DNA of 63,894 nucleotides, filler included, from NCBI GenBank assembly GCA_964501035.1. It is 3 parts of 3 records of this genome, joined end to end, with 100 filler letters (N's around TTAATTAATTAA, not from the genome) between each part and the next. Parts side by side here need not be neighbours in the genome. Positions count along the whole stretch, not along the records: positions 24,235 to 48,268 come from CAZCRK010000018.1; 2 more parts are not named here. One strand, written 5' to 3'. Positions 24,135 through 48,368 of the stretch are shown here, in pieces. The translations under genes and the position numbers were made by a program. A model generated the notes under the pieces. It did not search any database and had not been told where the DNA came from. It saw only the letters and a program-made list of their open reading frames with translations. Position 1 is the stretch's first letter, and each line of letters opens with the position of its first letter.

Positions 24135-24234
24135 NNNNNNNNNNNNNNNNNNNNNNNNNNNNNNNNNNNNNNNNNNNNTTAATTAATTAANNNNNNNNNN
24201 NNNNNNNNNNNNNNNNNNNNNNNNNNNNNNNNNN
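24135..24234. other. Artificial contig linker
   Basis: N44-TTAATTAATTAA-N44 (all-frame stops); identical linker at 48269. Confidence 0.97.
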
Positions 24235-27014: not shown

Positions 27015-28712
27015 TTAAATTAGTTCATCAAGTTCTGTTTGAACAAAACTCATTAAATCCTTAATGGTTGATTCAGAAAAATCAAATTTTATTCCCATTG
27101 CATCCCACACTTCAGGTAGTGGTTTTGAATTACCAAGAGATAATCCGTTAATGTATCCATTCAAGCCATTCTCTGCATTTTGCTTATAATTTCGATACAC
27201 TTGTAACGCACCAAGCTGTGCAATTGCATATTCAATATAATAAAATGGAACACTAAATATATGTGATTGTCGTTGCCAATTTACGGCTCTATAATGTTCT
27301 AATCCATCCCAATTTACTGTACCAAAAAATCTGTTTAGAAGTTCCATAAAATGATTATTTCTTTCATCCACTGAATGTTCAGGATTAAGATATACCCAAT
27401 GCTGAAAAGCATCAACAGTTGCACACCATGGGAAAATACCAAATATACCCTCTAAATGCTCTCTTCGTGCTCGTATAAAATCTTCATGAGAATAAAACAA
27501 ATCCCATCTACTGCTTGAGATTAATTCCATACTCATACTTGCAGTTTCAGCCATTTCTGATGGAGTACTTCGATACTGAACTAAGGGTTCACTATTACAT
27601 AAAAATGTATGCATAGCATGCCCACCCTCATGCATCATAGTAACCACATCTCGTTGAGTCCCAGCTGAATTCATAAAAATAAATGGCATCCCAGTTGCTT
27701 CAAGGGGATAATTATATCCACCAGGAGCCTTGCCTTTACGAGAATCTAAATCAAACAAACCCGATGCATCCATTTTTTGTAAATTATTACCAAATTCTGC
27801 CTTTACGTGTGAAAAAATTGAAATTGATTTCTGAAGCAACTCCTTCCCATCTGAAAAAGGTCGAAGTGCTTTCTCACCTCGGGGTACCCCTGTTGTGTCC
27901 CACGGGCGATAATCATCAGAACTAAGTTCTAATTTTTCACATCTTTTAAGTGATATATCTCTTGAAATAGGAACGACATACTTTTCAATAGCATTATGGA
28001 ATGTTATAGTGTCTTCTGGCACATAATCAAATCGTTTTAATGCATCATGTTTATAATTTCTATAATTATCATATCCAGCATTTACTGCAATTTGATGGCG
28101 GAGTTTAACCATTTCAGAATACAAATCATTTAACTCACCTCGAACCTTATATCGAGAATCATGGATTGCATACCAAGCATCTTTCCGTTTTTGCCTGTCA
28201 CTTGATTGTAATTTAACTGATGCTTGTGGGAGTGGAAGATCTTCATCATCAATTTTTGCAGTTAAAGCACCTACTGTTTGTTCAAACTTTGAAGATAATT
28301 TACTTAACTTAGCATCAATAGGAATATTTTCTTCAACATATAAGTCTATTTCTCGCTGAATCCCCTTTAACAACTGGTCATATCGTTGAAAATCTAACTC
28401 TTTTACAAAAGGACTTTCAGAAATTTTTAGATCAATCAGATTAGATGCTTTTGTTGCTTCGGGGGCAATAACACTCGAAAACAATTCATAGTGCTTAACA
28501 TATTCTGTATTATCTGTATGGCATGACATATTGATATACGACCATGCGTATTTTTCACCAAATAGTGCAATGAGTTCACTATAGTGAAGAATAAAATCTT
28601 CTAAATCTGAAACAGAATTAATCTCTTTATTGTTGAGTTCAGTAAAAAGTGGTTTTAAATCATCCCAACATGTAATGTCACATTTTTGTGAAATATATTT
28701 AAATTGAATCAT
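27015..28712 (-). CDS. pepF: M3 oligoendopeptidase F family
   Basis: RPWD, RKGKAPGGY, HEGGH, EMAETASMSME, PFYYIEY; start placed at MIQFKY. Confidence 0.9.
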   Translation of the reverse strand: MIQFKYISQKCDITCWDDLKPLFTELNNKEINSVSDLEDFILHYSELIALFGEKYAWSYINMSCHTDNTEYVKHYELFSSVIAPEATKASNLIDLKISESPFVKELDFQRYDQLLKGIQREIDLYVEENIPIDAKLSKLSSKFEQTVGALTAKIDDEDLPLPQASVKLQSSDRQKRKDAWYAIHDSRYKVRGELNDLYSEMVKLRHQIAVNAGYDNYRNYKHDALKRFDYVPEDTITFHNAIEKYVVPISRDISLKRCEKLELSSDDYRPWDTTGVPRGEKALRPFSDGKELLQKSISIFSHVKAEFGNNLQKMDASGLFDLDSRKGKAPGGYNYPLEATGMPFIFMNSAGTQRDVVTMMHEGGHAMHTFLCNSEPLVQYRSTPSEMAETASMSMELISSSRWDLFYSHEDFIRARREHLEGIFGIFPWCATVDAFQHWVYLNPEHSVDERNNHFMELLNRFFGTVNWDGLEHYRAVNWQRQSHIFSVPFYYIEYAIAQLGALQVYRNYKQNAENGLNGYINGLSLGNSKPLPEVWDAMGIKFDFSESTIKDLMSFVQTELDELI

Positions 28713-29742
28713 TATTTTTCTCTTTGATAAATTTTTCTTTTTGGGTTTGGAAATATTCATATTGCGGGTTAATTTCTATTGCTTCATTGATAACGTCAAT
28801 AGCTTCATCAAAACGTTTTAACTTGAATAATACTTCCGCTTGAGTATCAAGTATATTTGCTTTGGTTTTTAAATCTTCTGTTAAATTTACTGCTTGGATT
28901 GCTATTTCTAAAGCATGTCCCAAATTTTTCTCAATTTCTGACATTCGCCACGCATATCCATTTAATACGGATGCATCATTGGGATATAATGTTATCAACT
29001 CAATTTGCAATTTTATTTCTTTATCAATATTGCTTGTAGATGCATAATGCCGAATTAACGTTTGAAATGCATCTTTCGTATAGGGTGAGTCAGGATATAA
29101 GGATGTATATTCTAACAATTTACTATCATTCCCTGTAACAAGAGATTGAACAGAAATCATATAGTGTGCTTTCAAAAATGATTCTCTAGATAAATCACCC
29201 AACTGTAACAATTCTTCGTAAAGTTTGACAGCATTAACAATATCCCCTTTGTTTTCATATTTTTCAGCTAATATTTCTAATGTTTCTGCGCTGTGATCGC
29301 CCATTTCGTACCGTTTTAAGACATCCTTAAACGTATTCTTGTTCGATGCTATTTCGTTTATTTTTTGAAGGTAATCAGCTGGCATCATATACCCAATGAC
29401 CCTATCAATCTCATTTTTTTGATTATCAATAAAGACTAAATGAGGAACTCCCGAGCATCCAAATTCTTGGAATAGAGCATTACCCAAAGAATCATTTGCG
29501 TTCAATTTAATACTGATAAAATGGTCTTGTGAAAATTGAATAACTGACTCATCTGAAAATGTATCGGCATCCAGCCGATCGCACCATGGTCAAGTATCCG
29601 TATAAAAATCTATAAGTAGTATTTTATCTCCTGCACTTGAAAGAGCTTCATCAAATGTACCAGAAAACCAAGGATACTCAACTTTTGAACACCCAATAAA
29701 CTGCAATACTACTAATACACCAATTATTAATAATTTCTTCAT
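28699..29742 (-). CDS. Thioredoxin-fold/TPR lipoprotein, probable selenoprotein (UPWC, TGA codon 51 at 29590-29592), 347 aa
   Basis: ATG at 29742 with lipobox FIGC; in-frame ...LLIDFYTDT-TGA-PWC-DRLDADTF... continues into the ORF at 29505; cis-Pro GVPHLVFID; TPR-like C-terminus. Confidence 0.85.
29563..29579 (-). promoter_or_regulatory. Bacterial SECIS-like hairpin
   Basis: mRNA: UGA-CCAUGGUGCG-AUCGGC-UGGAU-GCCGAU; perfect 6-bp stem starting 10 nt after UGA, with G in the loop. Confidence 0.7.
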
Positions 29743-29839
29743 AAGTTTCCTATTTTAAAGCCGTTAATTTACTAAAGATGTGGAACGTAACCAATTTGAA
29801 ATAAAAGGGAAATCTAAACTGAAAATCAGCATAAATTTA

Positions 29840-30646
29840 ATGATGGGATTAAAGATAAAATTAAAACAAATTTTACCTAGAGAACATGGCGCTTGGGCTA
29901 TGCTGTTTGTACCAATTTTAATTGGATTGTCGATTGTTGAATGGTCTCTGGATATTGGACTAATATGTTTTTTAATGATTTTATTATTTATTGCACATCA
30001 TCCCATAAATACATACATAAAACAAAAAATTAATCGGAAGAATAAACAATTATTAGTAATTGGGCTGTCGTTTTATTTACTAATCATTCTAGGTGGAGTT
30101 TATTTATTATTTAACTATCAATCTTTGCAATTTGTTTTGCTATGTTGCTTGGCGATGCTAACATTTGTCTTTCATTTGTTCTTGTCTTACAAGAAAAAGG
30201 AGTTAAGTACAGTAAACGAATTAATTGGAATTGTTGGACTAACTGTTTCAGCACCATTATTATATGTTATGAATGAAAATAGATTAGACTTTATTGCATA
30301 TTATGTTTGGGGAGTTAATTTTGTATATTTTGCATCCACTGTTTTTTACATTAAGCTACGTGTTAGATTATTGCCAAAGGTAAATCGTCAACTTAGTCTA
30401 TTTGATAAATTGATGTTAGGAAAATATTCTATACTCTCCTTAATTATCCCCATGTTGTTTTCTGGAATATTCTTAAATACAATAATCCTAATCCCTTTAA
30501 TACCACCTTTAATAAAAGTAATTATATGTTTAGTGAACTGGACTCCAAGTACAAAGCTAAACATAAAACATATTGGGTATTTAGAAATAGTTTTGTCAAT
30601 ATTGTTTCTAATATTGACACCACTAGTTATTCGAACTTTGCACTAA
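29840..30646 (+). CDS. YwiC-like membrane protein
   Basis: PREHGAWAML signature, multiple TM segments, IGYLE near C-terminus; start placed at ATG 29840. Confidence 0.8.
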   Translation: MMGLKIKLKQILPREHGAWAMLFVPILIGLSIVEWSLDIGLICFLMILLFIAHHPINTYIKQKINRKNKQLLVIGLSFYLLIILGGVYLLFNYQSLQFVLLCCLAMLTFVFHLFLSYKKKELSTVNELIGIVGLTVSAPLLYVMNENRLDFIAYYVWGVNFVYFASTVFYIKLRVRLLPKVNRQLSLFDKLMLGKYSILSLIIPMLFSGIFLNTIILIPLIPPLIKVIICLVNWTPSTKLNIKHIGYLEIVLSILFLILTPLVIRTLH

Positions 30647-48268: not shown

Positions 48269-48368
48269 NNNNNNNNNNNNNNNNNNNNNNNNNNNNNNNN
48301 NNNNNNNNNNNNTTAATTAATTAANNNNNNNNNNNNNNNNNNNNNNNNNNNNNNNNNNNNNNNNNNNN
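48269..48368. other. Artificial contig linker
   Basis: N44-TTAATTAATTAA-N44. Confidence 0.97.

Follow-up and report, generated by a model that had tools for sequence, protein, structure and literature searches.

Thioredoxin-fold selenoproteins with a UxxC active site, in which selenocysteine (Sec, U) stands where the first cysteine of a CxxC motif belongs, have been catalogued since 2004-2008, and appear in the earlier surveys as a 'Thiol-disulfide isomerase-like protein' (Sargasso study) and as 'Trx-like 2, cd02953' together with other Trx-like families (Global Ocean Sampling study). The class is well known and is among the commonest of bacterial selenoproteins. Here, we describe a gene that adds a member to it, located at 28699..29742 on the minus strand of a 63,894-nucleotide stretch of DNA (the window) from the genome assembly GCA_964501035.1 of an uncultured organism. 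Its in-frame UGA "stop" almost certainly encodes the active-site Sec of an exported thioredoxin-like protein with a tetratricopeptide repeat (TPR) tail. The window consists of three contigs of the assembly (C17, C18 and C38) joined by N spacers at 24135-24234 and 48269-48368 (176 N in total), and gene order across the spacers is therefore meaningless; the selenoprotein gene sits on the middle contig, G000:C18.

The UxxC selenoproteins catalogued in a 2026 review (PMC13188914), in so far as its text describes them, likewise have a Thioredoxin_2 domain with Sec at the attacking position, are DsbD-gamma-like and are of marine origin. In the corresponding listings, neither a TPR domain nor a lipoprotein signal is mentioned, nor is synteny with FKBP. 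The terms 'TPR', 'tetratricopeptide' and 'lipoprotein' are absent from the main texts of PMC13188914 and PMC2398784, as are 'TPR' and 'tetratricopeptide' from PMC13326102, and 'TPR', 'signal peptide' and 'periplasm' from PMC1088965. A full-text search of the literature found 127 papers, and none of the 15 of these that were listed dealt, by its title, with such a bacterial TPR selenoprotein; supplements or BSepDB may catalogue the family.

The UGA codon at residue 51

The minus strand carries a frame of 347 codons from ATG 29742-29740 to TAA 28701-28699, with a single in-frame TGA at 29592-29590 that corresponds to residue 51, in the context FYTDT-U-PWC-DRLD. The gene and its parts are as follows.

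28699..29742, minus strand: complete predicted selenoprotein gene, 347 codons plus TAA, with one Sec-UGA (frame reading; end-to-end conservation in 62 full-length homologs)
29689..29742, minus strand: predicted signal peptide, residues 1-17, followed by the lipobox-like Cys18 (codon 29691-29689); sequence MKKLLIIGVLVVLQFIG-C
29347..29670, minus strand: thioredoxin-fold domain, residues about 25-132, DsbD-gamma/DsbH-like (Pfam, NCBIfam, PDB and fold matches)
29590..29592, minus strand: putative Sec codon UGA at residue 51, opening the UPWC redox motif (TGA/Cys column in 68 homologs)
29581..29583, minus strand: predicted resolving Cys54 of UxxC (invariant in the family alignment)
29563..29579, minus strand: candidate selenocysteine insertion sequence (SECIS) hairpin, 6-bp stem with a UGGAU apical loop (folding, covariation and bacterial SECIS criteria)
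28705..29331, minus strand: C-terminal all-helical TPR superhelix, residues about 138-346, 12 helices (Pfam TPR_2, AlphaFold2 model, Foldseek)

A first-pass annotation of this DNA had proposed that the frame is open to ATG 29742 around a lone TGA where the first Cys of a thioredoxin belongs, that a perfect hairpin lies 10 nucleotides (nt) 3' of this TGA and that standard pipelines would truncate the gene, and each of these proposals was borne out, by translation, by folding and by the public gene calls, respectively. Mechanical calling of open reading frames (ORFs) splits the gene into a 50-residue ORF (29590..29742) and a 268-residue ORF from TTG 29505. The entry for the gene's own product in the protein collection is this 268-residue fragment (P0002), and the public calls from close relatives, own product included (P0002, P0003, P0004, P0006 and P0007), all begin past the TGA.

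Searches of the organism's own genome and of 60 relatives gave near-full-length matches, mostly with one TGA, while a related-locus search of the genome contigs returned only the same-genus ortholog and one spurious match of 16 residues. Among 48 genes from the order, 41 had TGA at the first UxxC position and seven had TGT or TGC, the Cys-form motifs being CVWC, CAPC, CLPC and CIPC. A further 20 genes from other families and classes were picked by their stop flag (15 '1 TGA' and five 'none'), and their ratio of 15 with TGA at the same codon to five with Cys is therefore one of choice. Altogether, the codon was read in 68 genes and was either TGA (56/68) or a Cys codon, TGT or TGC (12/68), with no other residue at this position. 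With a profile built from 38 full-length members (345 positions), the family was detected in 162 of the 301 genomes sampled from the phylum, and 73 of 104 genera had it; among the matches listed, beyond which 31 further matches exist, 122 cover at least 300 of the 345 profile positions, 101 of them with TGA and 21 without by hand count. Sec is strongly preferred over Cys at this site across the marine phylum.

A quick maximum-likelihood tree of 62 rows, midpoint-rooted and built without L042 and L052 (many X) or the short L057-L060, placed Sec on every major branch with the Cys forms nested among Sec forms. The tree requires six Sec/Cys changes, at least three of which are forced by well-supported branches, and Sec at residue 51 appears to be ancestral across the whole marine phylum. 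Two further observations concern the distribution of the family. Genome G036 holds two paralogs, a Cys form and a Sec form (L038, L053). In addition, four genes of about 145 residues (L057-L060, from G013, G045, G041 and G049) are thioredoxin-only, without the TPR arm, and have the same Sec-UGA and hairpin; these may be a shorter paralog or truncated genes.

The machinery required for Sec insertion was found in the genome, the assembly of which is 95.7% complete. It comprises selA (E = 5.5e-130), selB (C-terminal wing domain, 6.2e-18, within a 627-residue frame on the strand of selA, some 2 kb away from it), selD (1.1e-113) and a tRNA-Sec scoring 65.8 bits against a gathering score of 47. Since selD (G000:C13:7047-7973, L003) itself contains one in-frame TGA, the selenophosphate synthetase of this organism is probably a selenoprotein as well. 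Across the order, selA was found in 53 of 61 genomes, including all 30 of the high-quality ones, and it is still present in genomes carrying Cys forms.

The accuracy of the TGA was assessed in contigs from four seawater sequencing runs, which represent four studies and one of which may be the window's own source. Three of the runs cover 29350-29800 and the fourth covers 29377-29713, with zero differences and with the TGA unchanged, and sequencing error was rejected on these grounds. No RNA run was found among the sequencing runs listed as holding the DNA of this gene. A pseudogene, or two separate genes, was likewise rejected, as the frame, the TGA codon and the domain are conserved across homologs. 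We thus consider it very probable that this is a genuine selenoprotein gene, the UGA of which is read as Sec by means of the SECIS hairpin, and we infer from it the actual insertion of Sec in the product. The true product would then be a protein of 347 residues with a redox active site, and not a 268-residue "TPR protein", and orthologs in at least 162 of the 301 sampled genomes of the phylum risk a like truncation.

The recoding hairpin and its replacement

The perfect hairpin AUCGGC-UGGAU-GCCGAU starts 10 nt past the TGA (29579-29563), with its loop starting 16 nt past the UGA. Its folding energy is -8.5 kcal/mol (z = -3.87), and among 200 shuffles 1 was at least as stable. The bacterial SECIS model given in the Fig. 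2 legend of PMC13188914 specifies 3-9 nt for the loop and 4-16 bp for the upper stem; the same source places a G within the first two loop positions, a UGA-loop spacing of 16-37 nt and a minimum free energy of <= -7.5 kcal/mol. Judged by that model, the hairpin agrees in all four respects, with a 5-nt loop, G at loop position 2, a 6-bp stem and a 16-nt spacing, the last of these being the lower limit of the model range. At gathering thresholds, Rfam gave no match in the whole window, and at E <= 10 around the hairpin it gave chance small nucleolar RNA and microRNA matches only, with no bacterial SECIS match.

Evidence that the hairpin is maintained as such comes from covariation among the TGA forms. 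Forty-nine of these, 47 of them distinct, share the hairpin of the window (type 1), and in this set 97.9% of the cells of the 4-bp core helix were paired compared to 84.6% in shuffles, a value reached by 0 of 500 shuffles. Compensatory, both-sided changes occurred in all four core pairs, and slid-partner controls gave 4-65%. For the full 6-bp stem, 83.3% of cells were paired in the 41 order-level sequences against 71.6% in shuffles. Column 17 is position 2 of a variable codon and column 27 the synonymous third position of an Ala codon; the two pair in 47 of 47 distinct sequences (as GC, GU, UA or AU), and this pairing is therefore beyond what protein constraint can produce. A lower stem can extend the hairpin to 29558-29585; this extension (columns 10-12 with 31-33) is mostly paired and shows almost no double-sided change, and is therefore not claimed.

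In contrast to the Sec forms, only 22 of 48 core helix cells pair in the Cys forms, and the helix is kept in none of the 12. The Leu codon CTG, which makes up 3.9% of the Leu codons in this genome, was present in 48 of 49 Sec forms versus 2 of 12 Cys forms. Conservation of the hairpin thus follows the TGA, with covariation where the TGA is present and loss where Cys takes its place.

A second hairpin type, GACC-AGUU-GGUC, lies a few bases further downstream, within K-L-D-Q-L-V. It belongs to a deep, 100%-supported clade of seven sequences (L066-L072, from G172, G108, G074, G124, G086, G102 and G083) in which the Sec-UGA is kept; here pairing of the hairpin is complete (100%), with both-sided changes in two pairs. 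As read from these alignments, at least one replacement of the recoding hairpin has occurred in which the UGA was retained. This amounts to a natural SECIS experiment, in which the same UGA would be served by two hairpins in sister clades, encoded over different peptides, with both lost in Cys forms.

Each of the four seawater runs mentioned above also contained an extra contig from another organism that matches only 29554-29586 (33 bases), with two differences. Since these contigs match only those 33 bases, no other part of the gene is as conserved at the nucleotide level among co-occurring relatives as the recoding element.

Predicted protein and gene neighbourhood

The product would be exported and is probably lipid-anchored. 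Preceded by a hydrophobic stretch, C18 is conserved in at least 90% of the rows of the family alignment. When a strict, PROSITE-like lipobox pattern was applied to the homologs, 45 of 58 conformed to it and 56 of 58 to a loose form.

In the N-terminal domain, the Pfam match to Thioredoxin_2 (residues 40-126, 4.9e-13) spans the TGA, and matches to Thioredoxin_7 (3.2e-9) and to a DsbH-type domain were also obtained. Curated cut-offs were exceeded by both Thioredoxin_2 and Thioredoxin_7 (PF13098, 49.8 bits against 27; PF13899, 37.2 against 27). In NCBIfam, the best matches are to seleno_TsoB and to DsbD (positions 467-572 of 574), in each case to the C-terminal thioredoxin domain; no model of that library attains its threshold with this protein, seleno_TsoB and DsbD remaining far below. 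An AlphaFold2 model computed on the family alignment (predicted local distance difference test 95.6, predicted template modelling score 0.83) shows the thioredoxin fold up to about residue 132 and twelve helices after it (138-346). In this model, strand 41-47 precedes helix 52-61, which puts UxxC past strand 1, where helix 1 begins. The invariant residues of this part are U51 (the Sec/Cys column), C54, P100, E111, R114 and G117, of which P100 would, from its position, be the cis-Pro. The C-terminal arm matches Pfam TPR_2 at residues 296-328 (2.3e-10, 40.2 bits against a cut-off of 27), and its helices match consensus TPR superhelices in Foldseek at 2e-8; the modelled superhelix has roughly six repeats. 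It carries an invariant patch consisting of N261, W265, R266, M267, D299, T300 and E303. As the arm is long and highly conserved, with W265-R266-M267 invariant, it is suggested to bind a protein or peptide partner.

The immediate neighbours of the gene are the following.

27015..28712, minus strand: pepF (Peptidase_M3, no signal peptide), downstream of the selenoprotein gene, likely start ATG 28712-28710
29780-30646, plus strand: gene for a YwiC-like membrane protein (PF14256, 8.4e-21), divergent, 38 nt upstream of the selenoprotein start

The overlap with pepF that had been proposed does exist; its extent, however, is probably 14 nt and not the 62 nt that the longest pepF ORF (ATG 28760) would give, as comparison with the same-genus ortholog makes the start at ATG 28712-28710 likely. 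The two genes are probably co-transcribed. A promoter and terminator scan found no terminator-like site between them; it placed one terminator-like site inside the region coding for the signal peptide, which was regarded as chance, and its promoter-like sites were below chance expectation (12 vs 16.6). The divergent YwiC-like neighbour is also present in the same-genus relative.

Across the loci of 30 relatives, the commonest arrangement (19/30) was a gene for a tandem-FKBP isomerase with a lipoprotein-type signal, directly upstream on the same strand. PepF is encoded downstream in 10 of 30 loci, this window included, and a cyclophilin in 4 of 30. In one locus, L028, the FKBP neighbour is a cyclophilin-FKBP fusion (the FKBP-linked loci fall within L015-L042). 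The genome also encodes a full DsbD, with DsbD_N, transmembrane and Thioredoxin_7 domains.

Possible role, alternatives and comparison with known proteins

The FKBP adjacency in relatives, together with the full DsbD, suggests an envelope reductase or isomerase with a substrate-holding arm. The UGA at 29592-29590 would be decoded as Sec by SelA, SelB, SelD and tRNA-Sec under the direction of the canonical SECIS hairpin. In the periplasm, the U51 selenolate would attack disulfides or oxidised cysteines of envelope proteins, these substrates being held by the TPR arm; C54 would resolve the mixed selenenylsulfide and the three-domain DsbD of the genome would re-reduce the selenoprotein, which may belong, with exported FKBP prolyl isomerases, to a set of proteins for folding or repair in the envelope. 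Taken in this specific form, with U51 attack, C54 resolution, DsbD recharge, TPR holding and FKBP partnership all included, the mechanism is a tentative one, for which belief and doubt are nearly in balance.

A bolder proposal may be made by analogy with CnoX. CnoX is cytoplasmic and the E. coli protein is not known to have a CxxC motif. The selenoprotein could be envisaged as an exported, selenium-dependent 'chaperedoxin', the envelope counterpart of CnoX, in which the TPR arm would hold unfolded or oxidised proteins while a DsbD-recharged Sec centre reduced or reshuffled them, together with lipoprotein FKBPs. We regard this as rather unlikely; if true, envelope folding and repair in abundant ocean bacteria would depend on the supply of selenium.

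Several observations weigh against the reading of the gene as an exported, Sec-dependent member of an envelope folding set. The FKBP neighbour is absent in this genome and genus, where the gene upstream is the oppositely oriented YwiC-like one and PepF is devoid of a signal peptide, and the case for a folding module therefore rests on relatives. A lipoprotein signal was claimed by the first-pass annotation, and the strict pattern is present in 45 of 58 homologs, but the gene's own lipobox, QFIG-C, narrowly misses that pattern through Q at -4, which leaves lipidation versus simple secretion uncertain. The arms of the hairpin stem lie within codons for the conserved R-L-D-A, and part of the nucleotide conservation is thus at the protein level; synonymous-site covariation and the contrast with the Cys forms argue that it is not wholly so. 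The Sec/Cys history depends on a quick tree, and because this tree is midpoint-rooted we can only infer that Sec is ancestral and that Cys was derived several times. Finally, the catalytic direction (reductase, isomerase or oxidase) is not readable from sequence, and the redox flow and the substrates given above are to be taken as conditional.

Among the alternatives, the one that survives best accepts a real selenoprotein and assigns it another job, as a CcmG/ResA-like reductant in cytochrome c maturation, in DsbG-like rescue of sulfenic acids in envelope proteins with a single Cys, or in binding of selenium or metalloids. The thioredoxin domain matches generic DsbD-pathway domains, which are used in all such roles, and the adjacency to PepF in this genus does not point to folding. 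However, no cytochrome-maturation or metal-resistance genes adjoined the gene in the 30 loci examined, the commonest neighbour was the exported FKBP (19/30), and the long, conserved TPR arm with its invariant W265-R266-M267 suggests a protein or peptide partner. Such a role is a serious possibility, albeit one that we do not favour over a part in envelope folding.

That the UGA is recoded, though not as Sec, is very improbable. An alternative code could make it Trp or Gly, or a mis-acylated or near-cognate tRNA could insert Cys, and one 347-residue metagenomic homolog in the protein collection (P0005) indeed has W at the Sec column; this may reflect gene calling under table 4 or 25, and the W is probably a gene call made with TGA as Trp. 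In this genome, however, 124 of the 667 ORFs with 300 or more codons end in TGA, and the open frame beyond it has a median length of only 5 codons, which indicates that TGA is an ordinary stop and the code is standard; an alternative genetic code was rejected on this basis. Several orthologs, moreover, use TGA as their own terminal stop, the replacement residue in the DNA-verified homologs is always Cys (12/12), and the organism has complete Sec machinery and a hairpin that fits the bacterial SECIS model. It is vanishingly improbable that the TGA is a real stop, arising by nonsense mutation, pseudogene formation or assembly error and leaving only the 268-residue TPR fragment from TTG 29505, or nothing, to be made, for while mechanical ORF calls and the public protein collection give exactly that product and TGA serves as a normal stop in the rest of the genome, TGA occupies the identical codon in 56 genes spread over many genera, families and classes with Cys instead in 12 homologs, the frame remains conserved between TGA and TTG (C54, L57 and T61 being invariant), the Pfam thioredoxin domain runs across the TGA and four seawater assemblies agree on it.

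Decoding of the UGA as Sec thus remains the favoured reading, and the gene would add an exported, probably membrane-anchored member with a predicted substrate-binding arm to the thioredoxin-fold selenoproteins. The most interesting details are the two alternative SECIS hairpins and the FKBP synteny.

Of proteins with known structures, the N-terminal domain is closest to a group formed by the putative disulphide isomerase of Bacteroides thetaiotaomicron (2kuc; sequence match 2.4e-23, template modelling (TM) score 0.80), DsbD-gamma (PDB 1vrs, 2fwg, 1uc7 and 4ip1; 6.6e-20, TM (target) 0.69-0.76) and DsbH (2ju5), which is also among its best sequence and fold matches. Identity to DsbD-gamma is 27-30%, with a root-mean-square deviation (rmsd) of 1.9-3.1 A. 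Like the domain of the selenoprotein, DsbD-gamma, DsbH and 2kuc are periplasmic, reductase-type thioredoxin folds; in contrast to it, they have CxxC and not UxxC, occur as single domains or as part of DsbD, and are without a TPR arm. The best NCBIfam match, seleno_TsoB (NF045694), is hit through its C-terminal DsbD-like thioredoxin domain (3.8e-15). This protein is a rhodanese/DsbD fusion with a UxxxxU motif, however, and the selenoprotein, scoring 55 bits against a cut-off of 805, is not a member of that family.

A natural Cys-form homolog was used as the query in a language-model comparison, in which the look-alikes (0.94-0.95, a likeness with no alignment or E-value behind it and hence a lead only) were Cys-type 'thioredoxin family protein' clusters of 354-463 residues with Thioredoxin_2/Thioredoxin_7, some of them auto-named TPR. 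The commonest phylum of these clusters is Acidobacteriota, Bacteroidota, Pseudomonadota, Myxococcota or Krumholzibacteriota. They differ from the protein described here in being Cys forms, and are uncharacterised.

The sole solved chain that matches both the thioredoxin and the TPR parts is E. coli CnoX/YbbN (PDB 3qou and 3qdn), with a Foldseek E of 5e-7 over 288 columns; CnoX was not among the 60 best PDB sequence matches. The two proteins differ in their domain arrangement (rmsd 22.6 A, TMq 0.26), and the selenoprotein has in addition a signal peptide and Sec. Thus CnoX is an architectural analogue, and the selenoprotein is no member of CnoX/YbbN. The likeness nevertheless suggests, by analogy, the pairing of a redox module with a substrate-holding arm.

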